From Acidobacteriota bacterium (lineage in GTDB: Bacteria > Acidobacteriota > Terriglobia > Terriglobales > SCQP01): a stretch of 64,000 bases of DNA. The DNA lies in assembly GCA_004299485.1 (NCBI GenBank), contig SCQP01000016.1:213842-277841 (forward strand), given 5' to 3'. The notes beneath the pieces are model-generated. The model saw only the letters and a program-made list of their open reading frames with translations. It did no database searches and was not told the origin of the DNA. Position numbers and translations under genes: made by a program. Positions 7,854 through 44,051 of the stretch are shown piece by piece; the first letter of the stretch is position 1; every line of letters begins with the position of its first letter.

Positions 7854-8201
7854 ATGCGGGCTGCCGACGGACAAGTCTTCGCGATCACCGGCCTCTGCCG
7901 GCAATCCGATTTTCGCGTGCCGCTTGGGGACTGGAGTTTGGTCCACCTGGGAACCGCCGAGATCGGAGGCGGCGAGGAACCGTACCTGCTGGTGCGCCGA
8001 AGGATGGATAACGGAACCAGTACGGTGGTTTGCCGCATCGATTGGGAGGGCGTGTTTACGGTGCTGGCCGACGACGATACCGCTGCGGAGGCGCTGTTTC
8101 ACGATCTGGTCGATCCGGCGGCGCCGGAAGAAGTCCAGCGCCAGTGGACGGCTGAGGCGGACACGCTCGAGCAATATCGCGGCTGGCGGCAACAAGCATG
8201 A
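7854..8201 (+). CDS. Hypothetical protein
   Basis: 115-aa ORF. Its stop overlaps the start of the next gene (ATGA). Confidence 0.45.
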   Translation: MRAADGQVFAITGLCRQSDFRVPLGDWSLVHLGTAEIGGGEEPYLLVRRRMDNGTSTVVCRIDWEGVFTVLADDDTAAEALFHDLVDPAAPEEVQRQWTAEADTLEQYRGWRQQA

Positions 8202-8953
8202 GCGACTGCTACTTCGAGTTCTGCAACGTCTACAAAAGCTTTGGCTCGAATACGGTCTTGCGGGACGTGAGCTTCGAGGTGTGCCGCGGCGAAACCGTCT
8301 GCATTCTCGGGCGTAGTGGCGTCGGCAAGTCGGTCATGCTGAAGCTGATCATGGGCTTTCTCACGCCCGATAGCGGCCGGATACTGGTGGACGGGCAGTC
8401 GGTTCCGGATATGACCGAGGCCGAACGGAATGCCATGCACAAGAAGGTAACGCTGGTGTTCCAGTCCGGCGCTTTGTTCGATTCGCTCACGGTGGCCGAA
8501 AACGTCGCCTTTCCACTGCGCGAGCGGGGCATGCACGACGAAGAAGAGATCGCGCAGGTGGTGGACGGCCTGCTGGACATGGTCGAGCTGCGCGCCGAGC
8601 GGGAAGACTACCCGGCGAGCCTGTCGACCGGGATGAAGCGCGCCGTGGCCATCGCGCGGGCGCTGGCCGCCAAACCCCAGGCCATCCTCTACGATGAGCC
8701 CACGACCATGGTGGACCCGATCATGGTGCAGAAGATCGCCGCCCTGATCGTGCGCGTGAAACAACAGGTCAAGTTGACGAGCATAGTTGTTACGCACGAC
8801 ACCCGCCTGGCCCGGCGCCTGGCCGATCGCCTGGTGCTGTTGCACGAGGGCGAAGTCCGCTTTTTCGGCACCGTGGCGGAGATGGATGCCACCGCCGATC
8901 CGGTCGTCCGCGAATTCCTGCGGCAGGACGAGTGGGCGCTCAAGGCGGGCTGA
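8198..8953 (+). CDS. ABC transporter ATP-binding protein (MlaF/Ttg2A-like)
   Basis: Walker A 'GRSGVGKS', signature variant 'LSTGMKRAVAIARAL', Walker B 'ILYDEPT', and the Mla-type 'MVDPIM' region. Confidence 0.8.
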   Translation: MSDCYFEFCNVYKSFGSNTVLRDVSFEVCRGETVCILGRSGVGKSVMLKLIMGFLTPDSGRILVDGQSVPDMTEAERNAMHKKVTLVFQSGALFDSLTVAENVAFPLRERGMHDEEEIAQVVDGLLDMVELRAEREDYPASLSTGMKRAVAIARALAAKPQAILYDEPTTMVDPIMVQKIAALIVRVKQQVKLTSIVVTHDTRLARRLADRLVLLHEGEVRFFGTVAEMDATADPVVREFLRQDEWALKAG

Positions 8954-9521: not shown

Positions 9522-10847
9522 ATGCAGTTGAGAATCCCGCTCCTCGCCCCCGCCAGCAGGTTAATTGCCATCGCCCTATCGCTGTTCGGCGCTGGCTTGG
9601 CGTACGCGCAAATCCCCAATCTCACGGCTTCGACGGCGACGCCGTTACCCGAGCACGGCCATAGCTACATCAGCGCGCGGCTGCCGCAGGGCGACGATGC
9701 GGTGCAGGTGTTCGGCGGCGGCGTGAGCGAGTTCGTGAACCCGGCGACGGGATCGGTGAGTTGGCGCATTTGCACCACGCCGCCCAAAGGACGGCAGCTT
9801 TCGATCCCGTTCTGCTTCGTGTACGACTTCGCGGGCGTACACCATCTGGAAAACAACGCGCCGGGCAACCCGAGCTGGAATACGGACGCATCCTACCTCG
9901 AGCAGGGCGGCTGGACCTATTCGCTGCCGGAGCTGACGGAGGTGACGCGGCAGGAGGTGAACGGCAGCTATGTGTGCGACTACGCGACCGATTATATGTT
10001 CCGCGACAGCGAGGGCGGGCGGCACGCGATGGGGTTGTCGATTTTTGGTCCGGCGCCGGGCGCGCCCGCGAACTCGTGCTCCCAGGTGCAGCCGGCGCCG
10101 GGCGGGGTGACGACGGGCGGGGAGGGTGCGATTCTGGCGACGACGAGCGAGCCCAGCGGCAGCTTCAGCCTGCAGCCGGTAACGGTCACCGATGCCGACG
10201 GCACCCGCTACATCTTCAACGACCCCGGCAGGCAGGCGCTGGCGAACGGCTTCACGGCCGAGCTGCCCGACGTCATTGAAGACCGCAACGGCAACGAGAT
10301 CACCCTCACGGACAGCGGCAGTGGCAAGGTGACCGCGACCGACACGGTGGGCCGGGCGGCGGTGGCGACCTCGGGGTTTGGGGCAAGCGCGGGCGACAGC
10401 GTGCAGATTGCGGGCGAGAGCGCGGCCTATACGGTAGACTGGGGCACGGCGGCGTCGAGCTACAGCGTAGACAGCACGTCCGAGTCAGGAACGTGTACAG
10501 TGCCGGGAACGGTTTCGGGTTCGCAGCCCGTGGTGACCTCGATTGAGCTGCCGGACGGCGAGAGCTTCACCTTCCAGTACGATGCGACCTATGGGCTGCT
10601 CGACCGGGTGACGTTCCCAACGGGCGGCTACGTGCGCTACGTCTGGGGGATGAACGCGGCCGCCGAAGGCGGGCAGTTCGCCTCGACCAGCGGAACCTGC
10701 CTGGACCGCTACGGCGAGCCGGCGATCACGGCGCGCTACGTCAGCCTCGACGGGTCAAGTGAGGTTCTGGACCAGAGCTTTGCCTACGCGACCACCTGGC
10801 CATCGAGCGGGGCGGCGTGGAGCAGTAACGGTCACCAATCAGGATGA
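9522..10847 (+). CDS. RHS/YD-repeat protein, N-terminal part with Sec signal peptide (probably the 5' portion of a frameshifted gene)
   Basis: Signal-like N-terminus 'MQLRIPLLAPASRLIAIALSLFGAGLAYAQ'. The ORF ends inside the overlap with the next ORF, which continues the same type of sequence in another frame. Confidence 0.7.
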   Translation: MQLRIPLLAPASRLIAIALSLFGAGLAYAQIPNLTASTATPLPEHGHSYISARLPQGDDAVQVFGGGVSEFVNPATGSVSWRICTTPPKGRQLSIPFCFVYDFAGVHHLENNAPGNPSWNTDASYLEQGGWTYSLPELTEVTRQEVNGSYVCDYATDYMFRDSEGGRHAMGLSIFGPAPGAPANSCSQVQPAPGGVTTGGEGAILATTSEPSGSFSLQPVTVTDADGTRYIFNDPGRQALANGFTAELPDVIEDRNGNEITLTDSGSGKVTATDTVGRAAVATSGFGASAGDSVQIAGESAAYTVDWGTAASSYSVDSTSESGTCTVPGTVSGSQPVVTSIELPDGESFTFQYDATYGLLDRVTFPTGGYVRYVWGMNAAAEGGQFASTSGTCLDRYGEPAITARYVSLDGSSEVLDQSFAYATTWPSSGAAWSSNGHQSG

Positions 10848-13800
10848 AGTGCGGGGCGCAAGCGTCGCCACCGTTTACGCCTACTCCGGCTACACGGTGC
10901 CCTTGCAGCCAAACGACGCGACCGTTTCGACGCTGCAAATGCCGGTGGAGGCAACGATTACGGCCAAAGACTGGAACGGGGCGACGCTGCGGACAACGGC
11001 GGAAACGTGGAACAACCCGCGCGAGATGGCGTCGAAGGAAATTACCGAAGATGATGGCAAGGTGAGCGAGCAGACCTACTTTTACGATGCGAACGAACAG
11101 CAAACGGAAAGGGACGAGTACGACTACGGCTCGGGCGCGCCGGGCGCGCTCACCCGGGTGACGCTGCATACCTACGGTTGCGCGCCCGGCGTGCACATCG
11201 TGGACCGGCCGACGGTGGTTGAGATCGAGGGCAGCTCGCGGACGGTGACGGCGGAGACCGAGTACGCCTACGACCAGTCGCCGCTGGTGGCGAGCGGCGC
11301 CACCGATGGGCGCGATCCGGCCTACGGGGCCGGCCGGGGCATCACCGCGCGCTGCAACCTGACCACGTTGACCAAGGTTAACTACACCGGCAACATCAGC
11401 GAATCGTTTACGTATGACGATGCCGGAAATCGGCTCACCCACGCCGACGGCAACGGCAATACCACGAGCTTTGCCTATAGTTCGAGCGATCAGGCAGCCT
11501 ACCTTACCCAGATCACGCTGCCGAACACCACGACCGCGGGCAAGACCGTCCAGCACTCGTTCACCATGGCCTACGACAACACGACGGGTCTTGAGACCTC
11601 GCGCACGGACGTGCAGAACGCGACCACGACCAGCTTCACCTACAGCGATCCGCTCGACCGGCTCACCGGGCAGAACAATCCGGATGGCGGCAAGATCACC
11701 TACGCCTATACGGCCAACTCGGTCGAGACCAAAAAGCTGGCGATAAACTCCGCCTGGACCGACGCATTTGCGCACTGGGGTGGCCTGGGCAGTGCCGACC
11801 GCAAGCTGACGTACAACGGGACCAATTGGGACACGACCGACACGGCGTTCGACGGCGAGCAGATGCCACTGTATGTTTCCTATCCCTATTTTTCGAGCGG
11901 CATCGGCTCGACCAAGGCCACCAGCAACTCCACCGAGCCAGGCGACACGACCGCGTTTGATGGCCTGGGGCGCCCGACGCAGATCCTACACTCCGATGGA
12001 GGTACGATGACCATAGCTTACTCCGGTCCCAACCGGACGGTCACCGACGCCGCCGGACGGGCGCGCGAGGAGTTCTATGATGCACTCGGGCGTCTGGCCG
12101 AAGTGAAGGAGTTCACTGACGCCAGCGGCGACGGCTACGCCACCTACTATGGCTACGGTTCGCTCGATGACTTGAAGGCTGTGACCCAGGGCAGCGAGAC
12201 GCGCACGTTCGATTATGACAATCTCAACCGGCTGGTGGACGCGATCAACCCGGAAGGTGGAACAGTGGACTATACCTACGACAACGACGGCAACTTAATC
12301 AAGCAGCAGGACGCCAACGGCACCATCGAGAACTACACGTATGACGCGCTCAATCGTTTGCGCGCGCGCAGCTACACGGTGAGCGGCAAGACCGCGGCAA
12401 CGCCAGCGGTCGAGATCGACTACGACATCGACTCCACCGGTGCTGCGACCGATTACGCCACTGGCCGCATGACGCGGGTCATCAGCGGTTCAACTTCAAT
12501 TGGCATGGACCAGTACGATGCCATGGGCCGATTGCAGACCTATGACACCGTCGTGAGCAGCCAAACGTATCACACCAGCCTGCGTTACGACTATCTGGGC
12601 GACGCCGAGTGGGAGGAGCTGCCCGATGGGCGCGAGATTGACGCCACCACGGATTACGAAGGGCGGGCGAAGTTTTTGTCGGACCAGACGGCGAAGTACG
12701 ATTTCCTGCACTATCGGACCTACTCGCCGGCGGGCGGGCTGAGCGAAGAGGAGTTTGGCAACGGGCTGGTAGGGTACGTGGACTACAACAGCCGCCTGCA
12801 ACCGGTTCAGATCTCGGTCAAAAACCCCAGCGATCCGAGCGATAATACCTGGAGAATGAACCTCTCGATTGGATATACGGAGGCGGGGGTGCAGACGGCC
12901 GATAACGGCAACGTGGTTTCCCTGACGGATGCGCTCGGCAACGCGAGCCAGAACTACACCATGAATTACGACCATCTCAACCGATTGCTGAGCTGGTCGA
13001 TGGGAGGAGGTACGAGCTGTCAATTTGCGATTGATCAGTACGGCAACCTGGGTTTGTCGAGCGGCAGCGGCTGCGCGATGCTGAGCGGGCTGAGCTTCAA
13101 CGGCAACAATCAGATCGTGGGCTACACGTACGACGCGAGCGGGGATTTGTTGACGGATAACGCCGGGTCGAACTACGCCTGGGACGGCAACAGCCAGTTG
13201 GTGAACTTCTACACCGGGGGCGCAAGCGGCAGCTACGTGTACGACGGCCTGCTGCGGCGGGTGGAAAAGGCGGCGGACTCGGTCACGACCGTCTACGCGC
13301 GGGACGCGCTGGGCAACGTGGTGGCGAGCCTGACGAACGGCGTCTGGACGGACTACGTCTGGGCGAACCCGCCCGGGGCGGGCAACCGGATGGCCGCGGC
13401 GCCGGCGTCGCCGGATGCGGAGCGGATAGCGGCGGTGGTCGGCTCGGGGGTGGGCACGGTGTACTATTTCCACACCGACCAGGTCGGGACCACGCGCGCC
13501 GTAACCGACGAGAACGGCAACAACGTAGCCACGTGCGGGCAGAACGCGACGTACCCGAACGGGAGCTTTCTGACCTATGGCCCGTTCGGCATGCCGACGG
13601 GCTGCACGCAGACGGCGACGCCGATTCTGTTCACCGGGCACGAGCTGGACAGCGAATCGAACCTGAGCCAGTTCCAGTACCGCAAGTACGCGGCGCTGGA
13701 AGCCCGCTGGGCCACGCCCGACCCGGCCGGGGTGAACGGCCCGCCTGCGCCCTCGCCCAACGGCTTTGACCTCGGCCCGGCTGCCGCGGGCGCACCCGGC

Positions 13801-14088
13801 GATCTCGAACCCGAATCGCCCGTCGCGAGCTTGGCGACCCTGCCTGGCTTCGGCCTCCCGCTCGGTGGCGTCGACCCGCTTGAACCGCAGACATGGAACC
13901 CGTATGCGTATGTCGGCAATACGCCCGTAGTTTTCGTCGACCCGTCGGGACGATGGTGGGGCTGCGTAGCAATGAGCGTTGGCGCCCTAGGCTTTGGGCT
14001 TGCCGGCCTGGCCACGGCGGACCCGTTCCTCGGCGCTATTGGGTGGTCCCTCGGCGCCCACGCCCTGGCATGCCACTTTGTGATGTGA
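10759..14088 (+). CDS. RHS/YD-repeat polymorphic toxin, main body plus 44-aa C-terminal tip
   Basis: Many YD repeats (e.g. 'YTYDNDGNLIKQQDANGTIENYTYDALNRL'). RHS core end 'FTGHELDSESNLSQFQYRKYAALEARWATPDP' followed by 'NPYAYVGNTPVVFVDPSGR'. There is no credible start near 10759, so it is probably fused to 9522-10847 by a +1 shift near 10820. Confidence 0.85.
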   Translation: MRFWTRALPTRPPGHRAGRRGAVTVTNQDEVRGASVATVYAYSGYTVPLQPNDATVSTLQMPVEATITAKDWNGATLRTTAETWNNPREMASKEITEDDGKVSEQTYFYDANEQQTERDEYDYGSGAPGALTRVTLHTYGCAPGVHIVDRPTVVEIEGSSRTVTAETEYAYDQSPLVASGATDGRDPAYGAGRGITARCNLTTLTKVNYTGNISESFTYDDAGNRLTHADGNGNTTSFAYSSSDQAAYLTQITLPNTTTAGKTVQHSFTMAYDNTTGLETSRTDVQNATTTSFTYSDPLDRLTGQNNPDGGKITYAYTANSVETKKLAINSAWTDAFAHWGGLGSADRKLTYNGTNWDTTDTAFDGEQMPLYVSYPYFSSGIGSTKATSNSTEPGDTTAFDGLGRPTQILHSDGGTMTIAYSGPNRTVTDAAGRAREEFYDALGRLAEVKEFTDASGDGYATYYGYGSLDDLKAVTQGSETRTFDYDNLNRLVDAINPEGGTVDYTYDNDGNLIKQQDANGTIENYTYDALNRLRARSYTVSGKTAATPAVEIDYDIDSTGAATDYATGRMTRVISGSTSIGMDQYDAMGRLQTYDTVVSSQTYHTSLRYDYLGDAEWEELPDGREIDATTDYEGRAKFLSDQTAKYDFLHYRTYSPAGGLSEEEFGNGLVGYVDYNSRLQPVQISVKNPSDPSDNTWRMNLSIGYTEAGVQTADNGNVVSLTDALGNASQNYTMNYDHLNRLLSWSMGGGTSCQFAIDQYGNLGLSSGSGCAMLSGLSFNGNNQIVGYTYDASGDLLTDNAGSNYAWDGNSQLVNFYTGGASGSYVYDGLLRRVEKAADSVTTVYARDALGNVVASLTNGVWTDYVWANPPGAGNRMAAAPASPDAERIAAVVGSGVGTVYYFHTDQVGTTRAVTDENGNNVATCGQNATYPNGSFLTYGPFGMPTGCTQTATPILFTGHELDSESNLSQFQYRKYAALEARWATPDPAGVNGPPAPSPNGFDLGPAAAGAPGDLEPESPVASLATLPGFGLPLGGVDPLEPQTWNPYAYVGNTPVVFVDPSGRWWGCVAMSVGALGFGLAGLATADPFLGAIGWSLGAHALACHFVM
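12847..13913 (+). repeat. 1,067-bp direct repeat, copy A (inside the main RHS gene)
   Basis: Aligns colinearly with 14952-16018 at a constant offset of 2105 nt with no indels. Differences are scattered single-base substitutions. Confidence 0.9.
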
Positions 14089-14108: not shown

Positions 14109-14441
14109 ATGGAGACTCAATTTGACCCCCGGCGCGAGATCCAGGTTATTTGGGTCATGCTTGGTTTCATGGTCGTGGGTTGCGCTTTTATGGCTTGGTC
14201 CGTGGCTTCCGCATTTGCTGGCCCCGTGATGTGGACGATAGCGGTCGCGGTGGGTGCGCCTGCGGCGGTATTTGCCTTTTATCTGTCGAGCTTCCGTTCC
14301 AGCCTGCGTCGGATGGGCAGCACGGCTAGTTCCCAGGGGCAGCGATCTCTCATGAGGCTAATGGCAGCAGCGGCGTTTTATGTTGGGGCTGTCGGGTTAG
14401 CGGTCGGTGAGGCCATAGGCCGTGTACCAGGAGGACACTGA
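14109..14441 (+). CDS. Small membrane protein, candidate immunity protein for the RHS tip
   Basis: 110 aa from the ATG at 14109, preceded by 'ggagagagg'. Starts 21 nt after the RHS stop. About 3 hydrophobic helices ('VIWVMLGFMVVGCAFMAWSVA', 'VMWTIAVAVGAPAAVFAFYL', 'AAAAFYVGAVGLAVG'). Confidence 0.6.
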   Translation: METQFDPRREIQVIWVMLGFMVVGCAFMAWSVASAFAGPVMWTIAVAVGAPAAVFAFYLSSFRSSLRRMGSTASSQGQRSLMRLMAAAAFYVGAVGLAVGEAIGRVPGGH

Positions 14442-14796
14442 ACAGACAATGCCTGACGCTAAGAGTTCCACCGCCGCGCTGGCCTCCACGCACGTTCGGC
14501 GAACGTTTGCGCTCCTTGGGCTGGTACTGATGTTGGCCTGCACGAGCATATTTGATATAGAGCTGGTTCGGGGGTTTGGTGTACCGTTCGGCCCAGTGTT
14601 CTTGCTGCTGTTCATCGCCATCCAGGTATACGCGATATGGCTCTACATAACTCACGTCGCATCTGCTGGCTACGATCCAGATCCACAGGTTATTGCGACC
14701 TCGATCGGGCTGGAGGGCGCCTTCCTCCTACTGGCTATCACGACGTCAGCTATCTCTATCACCGGAGCCTACGTTCTCAGCCTTATCAAGGCTTAA
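14422..14796 (+). CDS. Small membrane protein (second immunity-like gene)
   Basis: 124-aa ORF (alternative ATG at 14449) with 3-4 hydrophobic helices. The DNA is visibly AT-richer than its surroundings. Confidence 0.55.
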   Translation: MYQEDTEQTMPDAKSSTAALASTHVRRTFALLGLVLMLACTSIFDIELVRGFGVPFGPVFLLLFIAIQVYAIWLYITHVASAGYDPDPQVIATSIGLEGAFLLLAITTSAISITGAYVLSLIKA

Positions 14797-14951: not shown

Positions 14952-16018
14952 ACCTGGAGGATGGACCTGTCGATTGGGTATACGAAGGCGGGGGTGCAGA
15001 CGGCCGATAACGGCAACGTGGTTTCCCTGACGGATGCACTCGGCAACGCGAGCCAGGATTACACCATGAACTACGATCAGCTCAACCGTTTGCTGAGCTG
15101 GTCGACGGGAGGAGGCACGAGCTGTCAATTTGCAATCGATCAGTACGGCAACCTGGGTTTGTCGAGCGGCACGGGCTGCGCGATGCTGAGCGGGCTGAGC
15201 TTCAACAGCAACAATCAGATCGTCGGCTACAGCTACGACCCAAGCGGCAATTTGCTGACCGACAGCGCCGGGTCGAACTACACCTGGGACGGCAACAGCC
15301 AGTTGGTGAACTTCTACACCGAAGGCGCCAGCGGCAGCTACGTCTACGACGGTCTACTGCGGCGGGTGGAAAAGACGGCGGACTCGGTGACAACCGTCTA
15401 CGCGCGCGATGCGCTGGGCAACATGGTTGCGAGCCTGACGAACGGCGTCTGGACAGACTACATCTGGTCGAACCCGCCGAAAGCGGGCAACCGCGTGGCC
15501 GCAGCGCCGGCATCGCCTGAGGCCGAGCGGATCGCCGCGGTGGTTGGATCCGGGGTGGGCACGGTGTACTACTTCCATACCGACCAGGTCGGGACGACGC
15601 GCGCCGTGACCGACGAAAACGGCAATAACGTGGCCACGTGTGGGCAGAACGCGACGTACCCGAATGGGAGCTTTCTGACGTATGGTCCGTTCGGCATGCC
15701 GACGGGCTGCACGCAGACGGCGACGCCGATTCTGTTTACCGGCCACGAGCTGGACAGCGAATCGAACCTGAGCCAGTTCCAGTACCGCAAGTACGCCGCG
15801 CTGGAAGCCCGCTGGGCCACGCCCGACCCGGCAGGCGTGAACGGCCCGCCGGCGCCATCGCCCAACGGCTTTGATCTGGGCATAACCGCCGCGGGCGCGC
15901 CCGGCGACCTCGAACCCGAATCGCCCGTCGCCAGCCTGGCGACCCTGCCCGGCTTTGGCTTGCCGCTCGGTGGCGTCGACCCGCTCGAGCCGCAGACCTG
16001 GAACCCCTATGCATACGT
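14952..16018 (+). repeat. 1,067-bp direct repeat, copy B (orphan RHS cassette)
   Basis: Homologous to 12847-13913. Homology starts at acctggag and decays after tatgc(a/g)ta(c/t)gt. Confidence 0.9.
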
Positions 16019-16187
16019 GGATGGCGACCCGGCGTCTGGTTTCGATCCCGACGGCCGCTGGAACTGGTGCCTCACCGGAACAGTCGTGTCTATCGGCCTG
16101 AAGGTCTGGGGTATGACAGGGAACCCAATCGCCTTCGCCGCCGGTTGGTACCTCGGCGGCTATGTCGCTTTTGCGTGCCTCAAATGA
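14961..16187 (+). CDS. Orphan RHS C-terminal fragment with alternative 42-aa tip
   Basis: The 408-aa ORF duplicates the last ~355 aa of the RHS shell and core ('MDLSIGYTKAGVQTADNGN...FTGHELDSESNL...'). It then diverges to 'FDPDGRWNWCLTGTVVSIGLKVWGMTGNPIAFAAGWYLGGYVAFACLK'. The ATG at 14961 corresponds to an internal Met of the main gene, so independent translation is uncertain. Confidence 0.75.
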   Translation: MDLSIGYTKAGVQTADNGNVVSLTDALGNASQDYTMNYDQLNRLLSWSTGGGTSCQFAIDQYGNLGLSSGTGCAMLSGLSFNSNNQIVGYSYDPSGNLLTDSAGSNYTWDGNSQLVNFYTEGASGSYVYDGLLRRVEKTADSVTTVYARDALGNMVASLTNGVWTDYIWSNPPKAGNRVAAAPASPEAERIAAVVGSGVGTVYYFHTDQVGTTRAVTDENGNNVATCGQNATYPNGSFLTYGPFGMPTGCTQTATPILFTGHELDSESNLSQFQYRKYAALEARWATPDPAGVNGPPAPSPNGFDLGITAAGAPGDLEPESPVASLATLPGFGLPLGGVDPLEPQTWNPYAYVDGDPASGFDPDGRWNWCLTGTVVSIGLKVWGMTGNPIAFAAGWYLGGYVAFACLK

Positions 16188-17653
16188 GCGGAGCCGAGCG
16201 GCGGTCCGCGAGCGCGCTGGCCTCCTTTTGGTTCTTAGTAGGCGCGCTGCTGGGCGGGCGGTGGCGCAGGACTCAGGCTCGCGGGGGTGCGCTGCCGCTT
16301 CTGGTGGGGTTGGCAGCCGGGATCACGCTGGGAGTTTCGCTGATTGCTCGCTTGCACGCGAACCTCAGCCCGGCGGCGTTCGATGGACGCATGGGCGAGT
16401 TGGGGCTGGGGTTGTGGGGCGCGTGGCTGGCGTCGGCGGCAATCCTGCGTGTGGACTTCGGGTGGCACGTGCCGCTGCGCCCGTGGGCCATCCGGCCTGG
16501 GTTCTGGGCTGGTTATACGGCCGCGGTTGCGCTGGCGCCGCTCACCGCTGTGGTCGCCGGCGGGTTTGTGGTCACTTTGGTCGCCGCGGTGCTTGCGTTG
16601 CGGCCTTCTGCAGGTGGGGCGCTGCTGCTGGTGGCGGCGCTTTCGCTATTGTTCTTTGCTACGCTGCGCGTGACGCATTTGGCGCTGGTGCTACTCCGAC
16701 CGGGCGGAGCCGTCGTTGAGCGCATGGCCGGGCTCGCCATTGCCCTTGGGCTGGCAACCTGGAACTGGCTGGCAGGAGGCCTGGTGCCGCTGCATTGGGT
16801 GGGACAGCGTGCGGGCGGCGTGGCGGAACTGCTCGGATTGCTTTTGGCGGTTTGTGCTGCGGACGGCTGGCTCACGCGACGCGTCCTGCTGCAAGGACTG
16901 GCAGGGCGGCAGCGGGAAGTGATTCGCACCGGAGCGTTGGGTGCAGGCGCGGGTCCGGCTGCGGCCCTCCGCCGCGCGGCGCTGATTGGCTGGTTGCGGC
17001 ATGCCAACATCGACTTCGCGTTAGCCTTCGGCGCGCTTTGGCTCCCGATATTCGCCCTGCTCGCGCCCGGTACAATGCAGCCGGGGATGCCGATTGCCTT
17101 CTGCGGCTTTGCGCTGCTTTTCCTTTCGCTAGTGCGCGGGAATCTGCTTGGCATTGACGGCGCCGGAACCTGGCGCCATGCGTCGGCCGCGGTGGCGCCA
17201 TGGCAAGTGCTTTTGCAGCGCGGGCGGGTGCTGGATTGGATCGAAATTGTCGTCCTTGCGCCGACGCTGGCTCTTTCGGTGGCCCAGCGGCCCGGGGGCT
17301 GGACGGGGATCGTGGCGACAGTCGCGTTCGCGGTGAGCACTATTTCCTCGCAAGGCGCGGCGGGGTTGTTGCTGTCGTGCGCCTACCCGGAGCCGGTAGA
17401 GCGCTCGGATTTCCGCTCCGGAATGAATGCGACCGGAGGGAATTGGATTCTGCTGGGCACCATGATCTGGACGGTAGGCTTCCTGCTTGCATTTCTGCGC
17501 ACCTGGCCCGGCGCCGCGGCGTGGATCTGGCCGGCAGCGCTTGCCGGGGTCTGCCTGCTGATCCGGGAGGCGGTGGTCCGGCGTTTAAAGAGTCAGCTTG
17601 CGACTACCTGGCCGGCGCGGGTGCTGGCGCGGATGGGAGCGGTGCTGTCGTGA
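16184..17653 (+). CDS. Large polytopic membrane protein (putative ABC-exporter permease)
   Basis: About 490 aa from the ATG at 16184, which overlaps the orphan RHS stop (ATGA). At least 10 hydrophobic segments. Followed by an ABC ATPase with a GTGA overlap. The track ORF begins at 16067 inside the RHS fragment. Confidence 0.65.
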   Translation: MSGAERRSASALASFWFLVGALLGGRWRRTQARGGALPLLVGLAAGITLGVSLIARLHANLSPAAFDGRMGELGLGLWGAWLASAAILRVDFGWHVPLRPWAIRPGFWAGYTAAVALAPLTAVVAGGFVVTLVAAVLALRPSAGGALLLVAALSLLFFATLRVTHLALVLLRPGGAVVERMAGLAIALGLATWNWLAGGLVPLHWVGQRAGGVAELLGLLLAVCAADGWLTRRVLLQGLAGRQREVIRTGALGAGAGPAAALRRAALIGWLRHANIDFALAFGALWLPIFALLAPGTMQPGMPIAFCGFALLFLSLVRGNLLGIDGAGTWRHASAAVAPWQVLLQRGRVLDWIEIVVLAPTLALSVAQRPGGWTGIVATVAFAVSTISSQGAAGLLLSCAYPEPVERSDFRSGMNATGGNWILLGTMIWTVGFLLAFLRTWPGAAAWIWPAALAGVCLLIREAVVRRLKSQLATTWPARVLARMGAVLS

Positions 17654-18465
17654 GCGCGGCGATCGAGTTGCGGGAGGCGAGCAAGCGCTACGGCGATTGG
17701 GGGCGCTTTGCGGTTGAAGCGCTGTCGTTCGCGGTCGAGACGGGTACAGTGCTGGGCCTCGTGGGCCCGAATGGCGCCGGCAAGACGACGACTATATTTA
17801 TGCTTGCGGGCTTGCTGGAGCCGAGCGCGGGAACGCTACGGGTGCTGGGGCGTGAGGTGCGGCCGGGGCTCGGCGACCCGCGCGTGGGGCTGGTATCCGG
17901 CTCGCTCGAGGAATTCGACTATTTGACGGGGACGGAGTCAGTGATCCTGGTGGGACGTCTGCTGGGGCTGCCGGGCCGGGAGGCGGCGCGGCGGGCGGAG
18001 GCGCTGCTGAAGCTATTCGATCTTGGTGGGGCGGAGAACGGCCTGTTGCCGACTTATTCTTCCGGGATGAAGCAGAAAATCCGGGTTGCATGCGCGCTCG
18101 TGGGCACTCCGGAGGTGCTGCTGCTGGATGAGCCGTTCGAGGCACTGGATATTACGGCGAGCGCGATTTTGGCCGAAATCATCCGGCGGTTTGCAGCGGG
18201 CGGGGGAACGGTGCTGCTCGCCAGTCATGATCTGCGGCTGGTGGAGCGGGTGGCGACACATTACGCGATCCTGAAAGCCGGGCGGCTGGTCGAGACCGGC
18301 AGCCTGAGCGCGCTCGCCAGCGGCACGGCCGACGGGGGCGGAGGGCACCCGGCGCTGGAGCAGCGGTTCTGGGAGCTGACTGGGCCGCCTGCGGTTCCCG
18401 AACTTGACTGGCTGCGGCAAGGGAGTGAGGGCTCCGCCTGTGCCGGCGAGCCCGCGGGAAGCTGA
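17650..18465 (+). CDS. ABC transporter ATP-binding protein (ABC-2/DrrA-like)
   Basis: Walker A 'GPNGAGKTT', signature 'YSSGMKQKIRVA', Walker B 'LLLDEPFEALD', H-loop 'LASHD'. The GTG at 17650 overlaps the upstream stop; the track ORF starts at 17200. Confidence 0.8.
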   Translation: MSAAIELREASKRYGDWGRFAVEALSFAVETGTVLGLVGPNGAGKTTTIFMLAGLLEPSAGTLRVLGREVRPGLGDPRVGLVSGSLEEFDYLTGTESVILVGRLLGLPGREAARRAEALLKLFDLGGAENGLLPTYSSGMKQKIRVACALVGTPEVLLLDEPFEALDITASAILAEIIRRFAAGGGTVLLASHDLRLVERVATHYAILKAGRLVETGSLSALASGTADGGGGHPALEQRFWELTGPPAVPELDWLRQGSEGSACAGEPAGS

Positions 18466-18516
18466 AGGCATGAGAGTGGCTCGACCCTGGCGGCGCGGGG
18501 CGCTTATGATTAGGTT

Positions 18517-19392
18517 GTGAACTCAATTCATGCTTTTGCCTGGCACAACGGCCAGCTGGTTCCCACTGCGGAGCTGCGGGTCTCGCCGCTGCAGACGGGG
18601 CTGCTGAGCGGCTGGGGGCTGTTCAGTACGCTGCGGATTTACCAGGGCGTGCCGTTTGCTCTGGAAGATCACTGGCAGCGACTGGCGACCGATGGGGCCA
18701 AGCTGCTGATGGATATGAGTGGGCTGGAAGAGGAGATGCAGCGCGCGCTGGCGGCCGTCATCGCCCGGAATGACGCGCAGGAGGCGGTAGCGCGGGTGTA
18801 CTTCATCCGCAACGGCGGCGGATTGCTGGACTGCCCGCATGAGCGCGCGACCGACGTGCTGGTGTTTACGCGGGCGCTGCGGAGCTGGGGCGAGGCGGCA
18901 AAGCTGCTGTTGCAGCCACATGGGCGCGACCCGGAAGCGCCGCTGGCGGGCACCAAGACGCTGACCTGGTCGCATAACCTGGTGCAGGTGGAGCAGGCGC
19001 ATGCGCGCGGCTACGACGACGTGCTGCTGCTGAATCCGCGCGGGGAAGTGGCCGAATGCACTTCGGCGAACATTTTTGTGGCGCGCAACGGGCGGCTGCG
19101 CACGCCGCCGCTGAGCTCGGGCGCGTTGCCGGGCATCAGCCGCAAGCTGTTGCTGGCGGCCGCGCCCAAGCACGGACTGAAAATTGAGGAAGCGGCGCTG
19201 ACCGAGGCCGATTTGTACACGGCCGAGGAGATTTTCATCACCTCGAGCACGCGCGAGGTGCAGGCGGTGGAGCGGATTGAAGCCCGGGACATTCCGCGCG
19301 GGCCGCTGACCGCGCGCGCCCAAGCTATCTTCAAGGAACTGGTGGGGGGTTACGTGGCATCGCACAAGGAGCTCGCGGCAAAACAGGTATGA
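18517..19392 (+). CDS. Class IV aminotransferase (branched-chain aminotransferase / aminodeoxychorismate lyase family)
   Basis: 291 aa with fold-type IV pattern ('ECTSANIFVARNGRLRTPP', 'LPGISR', 'EIFITSSTREV'). Confidence 0.75.
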   Translation: MNSIHAFAWHNGQLVPTAELRVSPLQTGLLSGWGLFSTLRIYQGVPFALEDHWQRLATDGAKLLMDMSGLEEEMQRALAAVIARNDAQEAVARVYFIRNGGGLLDCPHERATDVLVFTRALRSWGEAAKLLLQPHGRDPEAPLAGTKTLTWSHNLVQVEQAHARGYDDVLLLNPRGEVAECTSANIFVARNGRLRTPPLSSGALPGISRKLLLAAAPKHGLKIEEAALTEADLYTAEEIFITSSTREVQAVERIEARDIPRGPLTARAQAIFKELVGGYVASHKELAAKQV

Positions 19393-35113: not shown

Positions 35114-37756
35114 ATGCGCGCGGGGTATAATCGCCACTACCAGTCTATGCAGGCGGGAGTCACTCTCGGACCGTATGAGATCGTGGCGCCGCTGGGCGCG
35201 GGCGGAATGGGCGAAGTCTATCGTGCCCGCGACCGGCGCCTGAACCGCGACGTGGCGATCAAGGTGCTGCCGGCGGCGGTGACAAGCGATCCCACGCGGC
35301 TGCGGCGCTTTGAGACCGAAGCGCGCTCGGCGGGTCAGCTCAGTCATCCCAATATTCTTGCCGTGTTCGACTTCGGCGTGGCCGAGGGCGCGCCTTATCT
35401 GGTGACGGAGCTGCTGGAGGGCGAGACGCTGCGCGCGCGGCTCACGCCGGCGATCGCGTTGCCGCCGCGGAAAGCGATTGAGATAGCGCAGCAGGTGGCG
35501 CGCGGGCTGGCGGCGGCGCACGCCAAGGGCATCATTCACCGCGACCTCAAGCCGGAAAATATCTTTCTCACGCGCGACGGCCAAGCCAAGATTCTGGATT
35601 TCGGCCTGGCCAAAGTGGCTGAGACGGTCAGTGACGACGCCGAGACCGTAGCCGCCGGTCAGGTGACCAGTGCCGGGCAGGTGCTGGGCACGGCGGGCTA
35701 CATGTCGCCGGAGCAGGTGCGCGGCCAGGCGGCGGACGCACGCTCGGATCTGTTTGCCCTGGGCGCGATTCTGTACGAAATGCTGACCGGCCGGCGCGCC
35801 TTCCAGCGTGACACTGCCGCGGAAACTATGACCGCGGTGCTCAAAGAGGAACCGGCGGAGATCACGGCGGCACCGGATACGCTGGCACCGGCGCTGCAGC
35901 GGGTGGTCGATCATTGCCTGGAAAAAGATCCGGCCGCGCGCTTTCAATCGGCGCGCGACCTCGAGTTTGCGCTGGCGGCGCTCACCGGCAGTTCCTCGAC
36001 CCGCACCGCGGCGCTCGCCGCGCTGCCTGCCCCGCGCCGTCAGGTTCCGATGCTCGCCGCGGTGGCCCTCACCGCGGTGGTTGTGGGCCTGGCTGTGTTT
36101 TTCGCGATGCGCCCGGCGCCGTCGGCGCACTGGCATTTTACGGCGGTGACCAACTTTCCGGGCGTGCAGGCGCAGCCGGTGTTTTCGCCCGACGGCCGCT
36201 CGGTCGCCTTTACCTCGAACGAAGACGGCCATTACAACATCTACGTGGCGCTGCTGAGTGGTGGCACACCGGCGGAGGTCACGCACGGGCCGAACGCGAA
36301 GCAACATCCCGCCTGGTCGCCGGATGGCGCAACGCTCGCCTACGCGCGGCTGAACCACAGCGGCCTCTCGGATATCTGGGAAGTTCCGGCGCTGGGCGGC
36401 ACGCCGCGCCGCGTGGTGCCCGATGCTGCCGAGCCCAGCTTCACGCGCGACGGCGACCTGGTGTACGAGCACGACGGCGCGGTGTGGGAGGCGAGCAGCG
36501 GCGGAGAAAATCCACACCAGATCGTGGGCATTCCTCCGGGCGATACCGAGGTGGTATACCCGCGCCTTTCCCCCGATGGCCGCTATGTCGCGTTTTCCAC
36601 GGCCAACTATACCAGCGGACCCTACCGCGATCTTGCGGTGGCCAATCTGGCGAGCGGCAAAATCCGCGTGCTGACGACTACGGGGTTGGCCACCTCGCCC
36701 GTCTGGACACCCGACAGCCACACCATTTACTTCGCGTACAACGGCTCCGGGGCGATGAACCTTTGGAAGATCCACGTCGACGGCTCGGGCTTGCAGCAGA
36801 TTACTTCCGGCGAAGGCGACGACGCCGACCTCGATATCTCCGCTGACGGAAAGCGGATCATCTTCGACACGATGCACGTCGGCATCGGGCTGGCCGAGGT
36901 CAATCTGCAAACGCCGGTCAATCAGCAAACGCCACAGATGCTGCACGTGGATCCCGCGCGCTGGCTGTGGGGCCCGCAGTATTCGCCCGACGGCAAGCGT
37001 TTGGCCTATTTCGCCGCACTTAAAGGAGTGGTCAGCGAGAGCATCGGCGTCGCCAATGCGGACGGATCGGGCGCAGTGCCGTTGGTCGAGGATCAGCGGG
37101 AAGATATCTTTCCGGTATGGAGCCAGGACGGCCAGAGCTTGTACTTTGTCTCCATGTACCCCCACGCCATTCGCACAGTCCCCGTTGCGGGCGGATCGCC
37201 GCGCACGTTGTATCGCTTACCGACGACAGCATCGTATTACCTGTCGGTTGGGCGTGATGGCAGGATTCTCTTCCAGAATGGCAACACCCTGGATGTACTG
37301 AACCCAGATGGCAAGGTTCAGGCGATCGGTGCTCTTCCCGCGGGTGCGGACCTGTTGGCCTGGTCGCCGGATCAGCGGCAGGTGGCCTATCGCCTTACGG
37401 CCCGCAGGGCGAATGATCCCGCTGCCGGCCTCTGGGTGACGGACTTGCATGCGCCGCCGCGGCAGATATTCCAGGGCTCAGTCAACCGTGCCGTGTCCGC
37501 CGCAGGCAGCCTGTACGTGCTGCAGGCGCAAGCTGACCTGGGCACCGTCCTGTGGAAGCTCTCCTGGGATGGCCGGGGCCGGACGCAGGTCTCAACCCGC
37601 ATTGTGCCGCTCTGGGACGCGAATTACAATGACGTGGGCGTCGTGAATTACGTCGCAGTATCGCCGGATGGCAACCAGGCCGTCTTTCAGGACGAGCCCG
37701 GGCTGTCGGAAAACATTGGCCTGCTTACGCTAGCGTCTCCAAAGAGTCGGCAATAA
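35114..37756 (+). CDS. Serine/threonine protein kinase with TM segment and C-terminal TolB-like beta-propeller repeats
   Basis: 'LGAGGMGEVYRARD', 'AIKVL', 'HRDLKPENI', 'DFGLAK', 'GTAGYMSPEQ'. The C-terminal half has repeated 'SPDG...AF/Y' WD40-like TolB motifs. The start may be the ATG at 35147. Confidence 0.9.
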   Translation: MRAGYNRHYQSMQAGVTLGPYEIVAPLGAGGMGEVYRARDRRLNRDVAIKVLPAAVTSDPTRLRRFETEARSAGQLSHPNILAVFDFGVAEGAPYLVTELLEGETLRARLTPAIALPPRKAIEIAQQVARGLAAAHAKGIIHRDLKPENIFLTRDGQAKILDFGLAKVAETVSDDAETVAAGQVTSAGQVLGTAGYMSPEQVRGQAADARSDLFALGAILYEMLTGRRAFQRDTAAETMTAVLKEEPAEITAAPDTLAPALQRVVDHCLEKDPAARFQSARDLEFALAALTGSSSTRTAALAALPAPRRQVPMLAAVALTAVVVGLAVFFAMRPAPSAHWHFTAVTNFPGVQAQPVFSPDGRSVAFTSNEDGHYNIYVALLSGGTPAEVTHGPNAKQHPAWSPDGATLAYARLNHSGLSDIWEVPALGGTPRRVVPDAAEPSFTRDGDLVYEHDGAVWEASSGGENPHQIVGIPPGDTEVVYPRLSPDGRYVAFSTANYTSGPYRDLAVANLASGKIRVLTTTGLATSPVWTPDSHTIYFAYNGSGAMNLWKIHVDGSGLQQITSGEGDDADLDISADGKRIIFDTMHVGIGLAEVNLQTPVNQQTPQMLHVDPARWLWGPQYSPDGKRLAYFAALKGVVSESIGVANADGSGAVPLVEDQREDIFPVWSQDGQSLYFVSMYPHAIRTVPVAGGSPRTLYRLPTTASYYLSVGRDGRILFQNGNTLDVLNPDGKVQAIGALPAGADLLAWSPDQRQVAYRLTARRANDPAAGLWVTDLHAPPRQIFQGSVNRAVSAAGSLYVLQAQADLGTVLWKLSWDGRGRTQVSTRIVPLWDANYNDVGVVNYVAVSPDGNQAVFQDEPGLSENIGLLTLASPKSRQ

Positions 37757-38984: not shown

Positions 38985-39576
38985 GCAGCGCCTCCGGATT
39001 GAGCACAGGCAACGGCCGCAGTTCGATCAGGCGCTCGGGCTTGCCCCAGCGGCGCAGGGTTTCCCTCGTCGTAGGCACGGGCTCGCCGTTCAGCACCAGC
39101 GCATGCAGCGCGAGGCCGCGGCGGCGGAGCGCTTCGAGGCTCAGCAGGGTGTGATTGATGGTGCCGAGAGCGGTGCGCGCCACCAGCACGACGGGCAGCG
39201 CCAGCCAGACCATTAGATCCAGCATGGTGGCGTCGTCGTTGATCGGGACCATTAACCCTCCCGCGCCTTCGACGATGATGGGTGCGGGCGCTGGCGGCAG
39301 GCCGAGCCGCTCGCGGCGGATGGCGACGCCTTCGGCGGCAGCGGAAACATGCGGCGAGGCGGGCAGCTTGAGGCGATAGGCTTCGGGCAGAATGCGCGCG
39401 GGCGGAAGGCCGGTCCAGCGGGCGACGGCCTCGGTGTCGGTCGCCGGATCGCCCGCGACGCCACTTTGGATGGGCTTCCAGTAGTAGGCGCCGGGCGTGG
39501 CCAGCGTCAGCGCTGCCGCTACCACGGTTTTACCGACGCCCGTATCCGTGCCGGTGACGAACCAACCGTTAGGCAT
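38971..39576 (-). CDS. bioD: Dethiobiotin synthase
   Basis: P-loop 'GTDTGVGKT' and '[10 protein letters not shown]'. Confidence 0.85.
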
Positions 39577-41713
39577 GCGCCGCCAGCACGCGCACCAGGC
39601 GGCTGCACGCGGCCGGGCTTTGGCCGGCGTGGGCGGTGATGCGCAGCCGCGCCGTGCCCTCGGGCACGGTGGGCGGCCGAATGGCGCGGACGTCCAGGCC
39701 TTCGGCGGCGAGGGCAGCTTCGAGCTTCAGCGCCGCCGCGTCGCTGCCGGCAATCACGGGGATGATGGGCGAAGCGGGAGCGCCGAGCGTCGCCAGGCCG
39801 GCGTCGGCCAGCTCGGTGCGGATTTGGCACGCGCGCGCGAGCACCTGCTCGCGCCGCTGGGGCTCGCGCCGCACCGCATTCAGCGCGGCGGTGAGTTGCA
39901 CCGCCAGCAGCGGCGCCGGCGCGGTCGAGTAAATGAAGCTGCGGCTCTGATTCACGAGGTGCTCGATGAGGCGCCGCGAGCCGGTCACCAGCGCGCCGCT
40001 GGCGCCCATAGCTTTGCCGCAGGGATGCAACACGGCCGCGGCGGCGTTGGCAACCGCCTCGCCCGCGGCGGCGACGCGGCCGGCGCCTTCAGGGCCATAC
40101 AAGCCCAGGGCGTGGGCTTCATCCACGATCAGGCCGGCGTGGTGCTGGCGGCACAATTCCGCGATGGCTTCGAGCGGCGCGAAGTCGCCATCCATGCTGT
40201 AGACCGACTCGATCACCACCCAGCGGCGCTGCTTGCCGACGGCGGGATAGCGGCGCAACCGTTCGGCCAGCGCATCGGCGCTGACGTGGGGCACGAGCAC
40301 CCGCCGCGCGCCTGCGGCGCGGATGCCTTCAATCAGGCTGGCGTGGTTGCGCTCATCGGAAAATACAATGTCGCCACGGCCGACCAGCGCGGTGATCACA
40401 CCCAGTCCGGCGGTGTAACCGGAGCTATACAGCAGCGCCGCCTCGCGGTTTTGCCAGGCGGCGAACTCGGCTTCGAGCTCGACGATGGCGGCGTGGTTGC
40501 CGCGCACGAGGCGCGAACTGGTGGAACCCAGTTCCAGGCCCTGATCCAGGGCCTCGACCATCGCCGCCCGAATGCCCGGATGCTGGCTCAGGCCGAGATA
40601 GTCGTTGGAGCAAAAATCCTCGCCCTCGGCGGCCCGCAGCCGGCGGCGGCGCTGGCGTTGTTCGCGCTCGGCGAGTTCTTCATCCCAGGCCCGCTCCAGT
40701 TCCGCGAGGCCGGAGGAGAGGGAAGAGGGAAGAGGGAAAAGGGAAGTCGCAACGGGCGCCGGTTCCGGGTCCAGCCCGAGCTTCGCCAGCAGCGCGTGAT
40801 CGTGATCCTCGCCGGGATTCGGCGTGGTGAGCAGCTTCTCGCCTACGAAGATCGAATTGGCGCCAGCGTAGAAGCAGAGCGCTTGCGCTTCGTCGCTGAG
40901 CGCCAGCCGGCCGGCGCTGAGGCGCACGCGCGAATCGGGCATCAGCATGCGCGCGGTGGCGATGGCGCGCACCAGCTCGAAGCAATCGACCGGCATGTTT
41001 TCCGCCAGCGGCGTGCCTTCGACCGCGACCAGCGCGTTAATCGGCACGCTCTCGGGCGGCGGATTCATATTCGCCAGCGTGAACAGCAGCCGCACGCGGT
41101 CGGCGTCGGCTTCGCCCAGACCCAGAATGCCGCCGCAGCAAACCGAAATGCCGGCGCCGCGGACGTGTTCGAGCGTGCGCAGGCGATCTTCATAGGTGCG
41201 CGTAGTGATGATGTGGCCGTAGAACTCGGGTGAGGTGTCGAGGTTGTGGTTGTAGGCGGTGAGGCCGGCGTCGGCGAGCTGCTGCGCCTGCTCGGCGTTG
41301 AGCATGCCGAGGGTACAGCAGACTTCCATGCCTAAGCCGGCCACGCCGCGCACCATCTCCAGTACGCGATCAAAGTCGGCGCCCTCTTTGACCTGCCGCC
41401 AGGCCGCGCCCATGCAGAAGCGGCTGGAACCGCCCGCGCGCGCCTGCTCGGCCGATTGCATCACGGTTTCCAGGTCGAGCAGTTTGCCGGCTTCGACGCC
41501 GGTGTGATAGCGGGCGCTCTGCGGGCAATAGGAACAATCCTCCGGACAGCCGCCCGTCTTGATGGACAGCAGATGACACATCTGGACGGAGTGGTGGCGC
41601 TGGTGCTGGCGGTGGACTTCGTGGGCTTGCTCAATCAGCTCCAGGAGGGGTTGATTGTAGATATTGGATACATCTTCTACGGTCCATTTCGGAGCAGTGG
41701 TCGCAGTAGCCAT
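39569..41713 (-). CDS. Fused biotin synthase / 8-amino-7-oxononanoate synthase (BioB-BioF)
   Basis: The N-terminal half carries radical-SAM '[11 protein letters not shown]' and '[11 protein letters not shown]'. The C-terminal half carries '[14 protein letters not shown]' and a BioF-like PLP region. It is a single uninterrupted 714-aa ORF; the junction '[13 protein letters not shown]' is encoded by a heptamer array. Confidence 0.8.
40712..40746. repeat. Tandem heptamer array (AGGGAAG x 5) inside the bioB-bioF junction
   Basis: ggaggag agggaag agggaag agggaaa agggaag on the + strand, which is the template strand of the gene. Confidence 0.85.
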
Positions 41714-43218: not shown

Positions 43219-43232
43219 CGGAGGGTAAGACC

Positions 43233-44048: not shown

Positions 44049-44051
44049 ATT

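Follow-up and report, generated by a model that had tools for sequence, protein, structure and literature searches.

Here we describe an RHS locus in a stretch of 64,000 nucleotides (nt) from an Acidobacteriota bacterium (contig SCQP01000016.1, positions 213,842 to 277,841; hereafter, the window). Two genes of this locus, a main RHS gene and an orphan RHS C-terminal module downstream of it, end in hydrophobic peptides of only 44 and 42 amino acids (aa), respectively (hereafter, tips). The reading that we favor, with a probability of roughly 55%, is that the tips are membrane-targeting hairpin peptide toxins with membrane-embedded immunity, encoded in a polymorphic RHS locus with exchangeable mini-peptide payloads. 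A first-pass annotation of the sequence had singled out the tips; absent from it were the two kinds of candidate immunity modules, one of them with an ATP-binding cassette (ABC) transporter, and a frameshift in the main gene.

The two tips and the core/tip boundary

The lengths that had been assigned to the tips, 44 aa after the DPxGR motif of the main gene and 42 aa after that of the orphan, were reproduced exactly by translation (Table 1). The main tip runs WWGC...HFVM and the orphan tip WNWC...ACLK, the latter following directly upon NPYAYVDGDPASGFDPDGR. Cysteines at positions 4 and 40 and a D/N-P turn, both claimed by the first-pass annotation, were confirmed for the two tips, and the proposed common block A.GW.LG...A.AC is present if a gap of 1 aa is allowed. 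Upstream of the tips, the orphan is 86% identical to residues 700–1053 of the main gene over 353 aa. At the DNA level, the identity between the two amounts to about 90–95% from position 12850 to about 13913 and to about 50% beyond the motif NPYAYV. To judge from the sequences, this drop in identity marks a core/tip boundary in the way that is classic for RHS polymorphic toxins. A six-frame scan of the whole window found only these two endings of such a kind.

Relatives of the tips

The window was compared with protein records (P0001–P0029) and genomic loci (L001–L021). With the C-terminal 410 aa of the main gene as the query, a search retrieved the orphan as well as close relatives from soil metagenomes and from metagenome-assembled genomes (MAGs) of Terriglobales. 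This survey of other RHS proteins, which the first-pass annotation had suggested, yielded five more tips of the same design: FWGCWGMDLGGLGLTVAGAITENPWAVAYGISLTYHGILCHAFTD (P0003), MSRCGWARLGTTVLRVAGLASEFCPICFAAGVIGWYLGGVVEVACFNK (P0004), IEWCVVGRIAQAGLISGGLIASGFGGAGLPFAIGGWYLGGYLDLECNW (P0005), MRACVAGRIAQSGLIITGAFMIAFGGSGLGLMAAGWYLGGALDLACGWK (L019), and HWLCVTLAAAGLAVDIAGGILAPEAEWGTAWAVSLGLHAVGCHFALE on an orphan fragment of 80 aa (L001). These tips (that of P0003 being shared with P0029) are 45–49 aa long, with a Cys at position 4 and a second Cys 2–5 residues before the stop. They come from four other Terriglobales lineages, so that the design is now found in five lineages. In a leave-one-out analysis, the profile scores of the seven tips ranged from 8.9 to 28 bits and, for six of the seven, lay above those of all 500 composition-matched shuffles.

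We distinguish type A tips, the kind of the main gene, which end in C-H-x-x-x, and type B tips, the kind of the orphan, which contain GWYLGG, a motif that all four tips of this type share without change. The two types have in common their length, the placement of the Cys and a Gly at position 18. The first-pass annotation had called the two window tips homologous, and for this pair the similarity is indeed above chance: the tips match each other with 11.5 bits in a phmmer search (E = 3e-5, single comparison), and their Smith-Waterman score is equaled by only 1 of 5000 shuffles that preserve the composition. However, the link between the subfamilies as a whole is weak, with an hhalign probability of 1.6% (E = 0.03) in the profile-profile comparison and with cross-type profile scores that lie mostly inside the shuffled distribution. 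Common ancestry of types A and B is thus plausible at the sequence level.

Of the five further tips, three terminate intact RHS genes of about 1515 aa that encode a signal peptide. Both types are represented on such genes, namely, by P0029 (1515 aa, type A) and the RHS gene of L019 (1520 aa, type B). The first-pass annotation had considered that the short endings might result from truncating mutations; this explanation is ruled out because homologous endings are conserved in five lineages and occur on intact genes of 1515–1520 aa. The C-terminal regions of distant acidobacterial RHS relatives are 81–228 aa long, and the mini-tips are therefore a property of the present clade. In one of these distant relatives, P0012, the last 219 aa are Gly/Ala-rich and hydrophobic, with a grand average of hydropathicity (GRAVY) of 0.59 and many GxxxG repeats; by its sequence, this region looks like a larger membrane payload of the glycine-zipper type on an RHS protein.

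The tips have no match in Pfam at E ≤ 10 and none in NCBIfam or among the sequences of the PDB. A HMMER profile of the two window tips, searched against 1.84 billion representative sequences, retrieved only the window's own protein; this exhaustive search is uninformative because the tips score only 11.5 bits against each other and because clustering at 50% hides alternative tips on similar cores. The tip alignment and the permease described below, when used in word-index searches, returned nothing or a near-identical copy from a close strain; this method missed relatives of 39% identity that were recovered through their genomic context.

Predicted structure of the tips

The first-pass annotation had proposed a two-helix hairpin, and this fold was predicted by AlphaFold2 for both tips. 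For the main tip, modeled from a five-sequence alignment, helices comprise residues 2–21 and 24–43, the second starting at Pro24 after a turn at Ala22-Asp23; the mean pLDDT (the predicted value of the local distance difference test) is 89.6, and four of the five models agree. In the best model of the orphan tip (pLDDT 80.2), helices at residues 2–19 and 23–41 are joined by a turn. Residue 4 lies opposite about residue 40–41 in such an antiparallel hairpin, and in these models the Cys pair could staple its open end. The Cys counts of the nine short tips of the clade, which include two further kinds described below, are all even (2, 2, 2, 2, 4, 2, 2, 6 and 6). Together with the Sec signal peptide of the parent protein, these even counts fit the formation of disulfides outside the cytoplasm, as far as sequences can indicate.

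The tips are hydrophobic, with GRAVY values of 0.63–1.22, the highest being that of the main tip. The glycine-zipper character ascribed to them by the first-pass annotation did not hold up. The strict motif, (G/A/S)xxxGxxxG or GxxxGxxx(G/S/T) (PMC12744356), is present in only two of the seven tips, no more commonly than in shuffled tips (probability 0.18–0.61), and we rejected it as a defining feature of the family. The sole conserved GxxxG is GWYLG, which is confined to the type B tips.

Neighboring genes as candidate immunity modules

Each of the two window tips is followed by genes for membrane proteins. For type A, these are two small proteins, candidate immunity proteins A and B, whose ORFs are preceded by good ribosome-binding sites; neither protein has a family match in Pfam or NCBIfam. 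At L001, both type A tips are followed by homologues of the two proteins (107 + 115 aa and 109 + 83 aa), a homologue of protein B being detected by tblastn at 7e-10. Thus, a small pair of transmembrane (TM) proteins follows the type A tip in all three cases, once in the window and twice at L001.

Type B tips have a different kind of neighbor. In the window, the orphan is followed by a multi-TM protein, the presumed permease, and by an ABC ATPase, and the three genes are linked by 4-nt overlaps that suggest coupled translation. In L007, L013 and L019, the gene right behind the type B tip encodes an orthologue of the permease (36–44% identical), and the arrangement of type B tip, permease and ABC ATPase was found in four of four lineages (window/L021, L007–L012, L013 and L019); L001, which lacks a type B tip, also lacks the transporter. 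The best match of the ATPase is TIGR01188, drrA (180.7 bits; cut-off 312.45), and it matches the lantibiotic-protection family TIGR03740 with 113 bits (1.6e-32; cut-off 309.75). Its PDB matches are ABCA transporters, and its assignment to the general ABC-2/ABCA exporter class is clear from the sequence.

One alternative is that the ABC transporter stands beside type B tips through mere conserved synteny. However, the genes that flank the locus in the window are absent from the other loci. Since the flanks differ between genomes, the RHS gene, the type B tip, the permease and the ATPase form a unit in varied genomic contexts, and the synteny explanation is weakened. Relative to the window, the RHS cores are 67–80% identical, the ATPases 62–68% and the permeases 36–44%. 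The divergence of the permease would fit a permease that tracks a fast-evolving toxin; looser constraint on TM proteins could be another explanation.

Taken together, the sequences suggest that the membrane proteins encoded by the neighboring genes probably give immunity. Membrane-protein neighbors, as present beside both window tips, would be the expectation for a toxin that acts on membranes.

Two candidate relationships were rejected. Immunity proteins A and B are not homologues of parts of the permease (hhalign probability below 1%), and a 501-aa gene on the minus strand of L001, 27% identical to the permease in a MAFFT alignment, gave a BLASTP E value of 9.5. Additional ABC ATPase sequences lie upstream of two RHS genes: in the window, such a gene (8198–8953, plus strand) ends 570 bp upstream of the RHS start, and in L019, an ABC ATPase-like stretch, 32% identical, lies just upstream of the RHS gene. 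This is probably a coincidence within a very common family.

Table 1. Features of the RHS locus in the window
Feature	Position	Strand	Description
N-terminal part of main RHS gene, separate open reading frame (ORF)	9522..10847	+	Sec-type signal peptide (MQLRIPLLAPASRLIAIALSLFGAGLAYA|Q) and about 410 aa; from translation
Main RHS ORF	10759..14088	+	YD-repeat shell, RHS-associated core and tip; 1109 codons
8-bp deletion	10820..10835, after about 10827	+	Shifts the frame between the two RHS ORFs; from DNA alignment with L017, L019 and L001
Pro/Gly/Ala-rich insertion, about 45–50 aa	13732..13884	+	In the RHS-associated core, separating its two DPxG motifs; from the split TIGR03696 match and alignment
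Core/tip boundary NPYAYVGNTPVVFVDPSGR	13897..13953	+	Predicted autoproteolytic site after DPSGR
Type A tip WWGCVAMSVGALGFGLAGLATADPFLGAIGWSLGAHALACHFVM	13954..14088	+	44 aa and stop; residues 13954–14085, stop 14086–14088; from translation
Candidate immunity protein A	14109..14441	+	110 aa with about 3 TM segments; ribosome-binding site GGAGAGAGG; 20 nt past the RHS stop
Candidate immunity protein B	14449..14796	+	115 aa, about 3–4 TM segments; GGAGGA ribosome-binding site
Orphan RHS C-terminal module	14961..16187	+	408 aa; identical to TAN21403.1 (P0002)
Type B tip WNWCLTGTVVSIGLKVWGMTGNPIAFAAGWYLGGYVAFACLK	16059..16187	+	42 aa and stop; residues 16059–16184; from translation
Multi-TM protein, presumed permease partner of the ABC ATPase	16184..17653	+	489 aa, about 9 hydrophobic segments; ATG overlaps the orphan TGA (ATGA)
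ABC ATPase, DrrA/NodI/ABCA-like	17650..18465	+	271 aa; PF00005 at 7e-24; GTG overlaps the permease TGA (GTGA)

Exchange of tips together with their neighbors

L021, which stems from a different assembly, is 99.2% identical to positions 14959–19047 of the window, and the orphan, the permease and the ATPase are all kept. At its main gene (region 2–1084 of L021), the tip is a different one, 55 aa long, Cys-rich (6 Cys) and non-hydrophobic: YRCICWLSLEVDYEGGFSDCIYGCFCSDWRWRTVIAARFDYEGCSTFGTYRPPAY. In place of the two membrane-protein genes of type A, L021 carries a gene for a soluble protein of 159 aa without a Pfam match. The tip and its neighbors have therefore been exchanged together, and such a joint exchange is, at the level of sequence, the behavior of toxin/immunity modules. 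The L021 pair may consist of a knottin-like mini-toxin and a cytoplasmic immunity protein. A third kind of short tip, of 54 aa and again with 6 Cys (FWVRGLPSWRCYGACLGLAQITVYRICRFVVGYWGECAAGVEAAFALLCWERCS), was found at L017 (6562–7160) at the end of an intact RHS protein of 1516 aa; downstream of it lie a small TM ORF and then signal peptidase I. These tips suggest that the clade as a whole specializes in mini-payloads.

Proposed mechanism and alternative explanations

If the tips are hairpin toxins, the aspartyl-protease core would cleave after DPxG[RQT], and the peptide would stay inside the shell. Following its export and release, a disulfide between the two Cys would close the open end of the hairpin. 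The hairpin would then insert into the cytoplasmic membrane of a competitor, where it might form or nucleate a leak or block a membrane protein. Self-protection against type A would be conferred by the two small polytopic proteins A and B, and against type B by the ABC exporter, which would expel the peptide from the membrane in the manner of the LanFEG transporters. The orphan would serve as a reserve cassette in the present genome; orphan cassettes downstream of RHS genes were found once in the window and, in a minimal form, in L001.

Several points weigh against this reading. Its functional claims, from toxicity and the cleavage site to the disulfide, the target and immunity, are inferred. 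The 64-kb window encodes no type VI secretion system (T6SS) or other delivery apparatus besides Sec, its other genes being housekeeping genes, and the route of the peptide from a diderm producer to the inner membrane of a neighbor is unexplained by the genes of the window. The main gene in the window may be inactive, given its frameshifting 8-bp deletion, and the main RHS gene of the L001 type is split by a different frameshift (...TEIT|VKDP...) in 7 contigs from 6 samples. As for the structure, four of the five models of the orphan tip are poor (pLDDT 42–58), AlphaFold is prone to build helices from short hydrophobic peptides, and a Foldseek search of the PDB with the hairpin model gave no match at E < 3, only generic helical hairpins. 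The tips have no relatives outside this RHS clade in searches that were insensitive. With respect to immunity, the permease matches no Pfam or NCBIfam family, the ATPase stays under the curated cut-off of each named subfamily, and the association with the transporter comes from four lineages that are related and belong to a single bacterial order. So far, the tips are confined to this one order of uncultured bacteria.

The tips could also be toxins that do not form pores, the hairpin binding a specific membrane protein or lipid-linked target and the immunity proteins acting as decoys or shields. Many class II bacteriocins and microcins bind a specific membrane target; neither a conserved glycine zipper nor an oligomerization motif is present in the short tips, one arm of about 18–20 residues is barely long enough for the bilayer, and the diversified tip types, each with a dedicated, unrelated immunity module, suit specific recognition. 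However, no receptor is indicated by the sequence, the ABC exporter would equally fit removal of the peptide from the bilayer, and the closest structural analogues, the gallocin A group, permeabilize pure lipid vesicles (PMC10100652). We consider this mode of action unlikely, if still worth serious attention. A cleavage site farther upstream, for example near the first DPAG (residue 988), would release a larger payload of about 120 aa that consists of the tip and an approximately 70-aa Pro/Gly-rich insertion. The unusual insertion of 45–50 aa between the DPxG motifs, which splits the TIGR03696 match, speaks for this reading, as does one intact homologue with DLTGR rather than DPxG at the distal site. 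Yet the insertion is conserved and identical in the main gene and the orphan, the polymorphism begins only past NPYAYV, the minimal orphan cassette of L001 begins within about 30 aa of the distal motif, and the distal xDPxG[RQT] is kept in all sequences but one, which makes this larger payload very improbable.

The tips might not be toxins at all, but C-terminal membrane anchors or remnants of a decaying RHS locus, next to downstream genes, including the ABC transporter, that are unrelated to them. The frameshifts in the main gene and in the L001-type gene are compatible with decay, the tips have no detectable homology to any toxin family, and the link of permease and ATPase to immunity is putative. 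However, the same tips terminate intact, full-length genes, and across five lineages the endings vary by no more than a few residues. The C-terminal region is enclosed in the shell in solved RHS/Tc proteins, and would thus be unusable as an anchor. Furthermore, the sharp divergence between core and tip, the orphan cassettes and the swap of tip and neighbors between 99%-identical strains are signatures of toxin/immunity loci, and the block of RHS gene, tip, permease and ATPase reappears between different flanks, with stop codons that overlap the next start codon. Altogether, we regard a non-toxic role as quite unlikely and continue to favor the membrane-targeting hairpin.

Comparison with known systems

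The first-pass annotation had regarded a membrane peptide of bacteriocin size on an RHS protein as unusual. This was overstated, given that a small hydrophobic two-TM RHS payload, Tox-WTIP, had been predicted computationally in 2012 on RHS-repeat and Sec-exported polymorphic toxins (there labeled 'T2SS', type II secretion system) and proposed to form pores (Zhang et al., 2012; PMC3482391). Its signature pairs an RxxR motif in the first helix with Wx[ST]IP in the second, and it is restricted to Proteobacteria (PMC3482391). No mention of Tox-WTIP beyond this publication was found in the literature searched. Like Tox-WTIP, the present tips are small and hydrophobic, are predicted to form two helices of 18–20 residues and stand at the C terminus of RHS proteins. 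Unlike Tox-WTIP, they come from Acidobacteria, contain a conserved Cys pair and lack Pfam matches, and neither RxxR nor Wx[ST]IP occurs in any of the seven. By analogy, they might work in the same way as Tox-WTIP while falling outside its membership.

The toxin domain of Tse5 (RhsP1) from Pseudomonas aeruginosa is much larger than the present tips. In two reports, this protein is described as an RHS cage that encloses a membrane-depolarizing C-terminal toxin, with Tsi5 as the membrane-bound immunity protein (PMC12744356; PMC11630599). Tse5 is delivered by the T6SS, whereas the present RHS protein has a Sec signal peptide, payloads of 42–49 aa and no T6SS genes nearby. The ionophore toxins of contact-dependent inhibition (CDI) systems (CdiA-CT) are likewise polymorphic, helical, membrane-depolarizing C-terminal toxins with integral-membrane immunity proteins (PMC11630599). 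They differ in their delivery by CdiA/CdiB, in a larger region of two domains (entry and ionophore) and in their use of receptors such as AcrB, and no sequence relationship to the tips was detected.

The class IIb bacteriocins of the gallocin A group are 42–60 aa long (42 and 60 aa for the gallocin A peptides themselves) and have few charges and two Cys near the termini; they are modeled as a helical hairpin with an intramolecular disulfide on which activity depends, and permeabilize membranes and vesicles (PMC10100652). The brochocin C/thermophilin 13/ABP-118 bacteriocins are named together with gallocin A in this group (PMC10100652). The present tips resemble them in size (40–60 aa), few charges, a Cys near each end and the predicted helical hairpin. 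However, the bacteriocins are free two-peptide toxins of Firmicutes with double-glycine leaders and dedicated ABC export, whereas here a single peptide lies behind an RHS core. The tips have no double-glycine leader and no match to Pfam Bacteriocin_IIc or TIGR03949. The gallocin A group would nevertheless provide their best functional analogues. EsxX, TelE and TspA, the glycine-zipper LXG toxins of type VII secretion systems (T7SS), also combine a polymorphic-toxin scaffold with a short membrane-depolarizing helical element, but they are Gram-positive, T7SS-dependent and have larger C-terminal domains, and their extended glycine zipper is not conserved in the tips.

Lantibiotic producers are protected by LanFEG-type ABC immunity transporters, and immunity by an ABC exporter is a hallmark of these producers. 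As in LanFEG, an ATPase of the ABC-2/DrrA class and a hydrophobic permease are encoded next to a putative membrane-active peptide; unlike LanFEG, the permease is a single protein of about 490 aa without a family rather than a LanE/LanG pair, and the ATPase falls short of the lantibiotic-protection cut-off given above. In the literature searched, we found no precedent for an ABC transporter as the immunity component of an RHS or other polymorphic toxin, and the fact that one tip type is consistently paired with an ABC exporter appears to be the foremost novelty of the locus. The family of Cys-bracketed hairpins with two subfamilies and the RHS clade devoted to payloads of 42–55 aa also appear to be new.

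A broader proposal, which we put forward tentatively because its odds seem to us somewhat short of even, is that this Sec-exported acidobacterial RHS clade is a carrier of disulfide-stapled ribosomal mini-peptides of at least four unrelated types (42–55 aa), one of which is countered by an ABC exporter. If so, the locus would be a hybrid between polymorphic toxins and class II bacteriocins, its payloads would be the smallest known for RHS proteins, its ABC-transporter immunity would be a first for an RHS toxin, and ABC-exporter immunity would extend from lantibiotic producers to polymorphic toxins. RHS cages are regarded as containers of unfolded enzyme domains of about 100–250 aa. If the tips are active, the cage would also carry bacteriocin-sized hairpins, and encapsulation, rather than a leader peptide, would keep the producer safe. 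The tips would then constitute a new peptide family without database annotation and offer a rare view of the weapons that soil Acidobacteria, an abundant and barely studied group, use against other bacteria. The tips are short enough to be synthesized, so that the hypothesis is directly testable.

The RHS scaffold and the main gene

A frameshift divides the main RHS gene of the window into an N-terminal ORF of 441 aa, which is 64–73% identical to the N-termini of the intact homologues of 1516 and 1520 aa (L017 and L019), and the main ORF. The public record of the latter, P0001, is identical to it, with the start called at MRGASV, downstream of the frameshift. The underlying 8-bp deletion is either a real mutation, making the gene a pseudogene, or an error in the assembly of the MAG, to judge from the sequence. 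The frameshift of the L001-type gene lies at positions 3538–3700 of L001 and likewise in L002–L006, and could reflect inactivation at the population level or a systematic assembly error; P0029, a near-identical gene from another assembly, is intact.

In family scans, the main ORF matched PF05593 (9.4e-20) and TIGR01643 (2.8e-11), and the orphan gave a YD/RHS-repeat match at 2.5e-7. The RHS-associated core, TIGR03696, was recognized with 51.7 bits (main ORF) and 54.1 bits (cut-off 32.5). The motif at the end of the core is VFVDPSGR or SGFDPDGR here, R, Q or T replacing the L of PxxxxDPxG[L]. Cleavage after DPSGR is inferred by analogy with the RHS/TcC family. In P0029, the predicted cleavage motif reads ADLTGR instead of ADPTGQ, with the Pro of DPxG changed to Leu, next to a tip that is identical. 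In the main gene, the two DPxG motifs (D988 and D1061) are spaced by 69 aa, versus 26 aa in the distant relative P0007. The insertion that lies between them is present throughout the clade and appears to be new within an RHS-associated core.

Other genes in the window

Elsewhere in the window, a MacAB-like efflux cluster lies at 41800–45272 on the plus strand, 24 kb from the RHS locus and without an evident link to it; it comprises an HlyD-family adaptor (41800–43218), an ORF of 271 aa (43233–44048) and a MacB_PCD/FtsX permease (44052–45272). A Ser/Thr protein kinase of 880 aa, fused to PD40/beta-propeller repeats, is encoded at 35114–37756 on the plus strand. On the minus strand, an ORF of 714 aa (39569–41713) contains Radical_SAM and BATS (biotin-synthase-like) domains together with a class I/II aminotransferase domain and, judged by these domains, is an apparent fusion of the BioB-BioF type.

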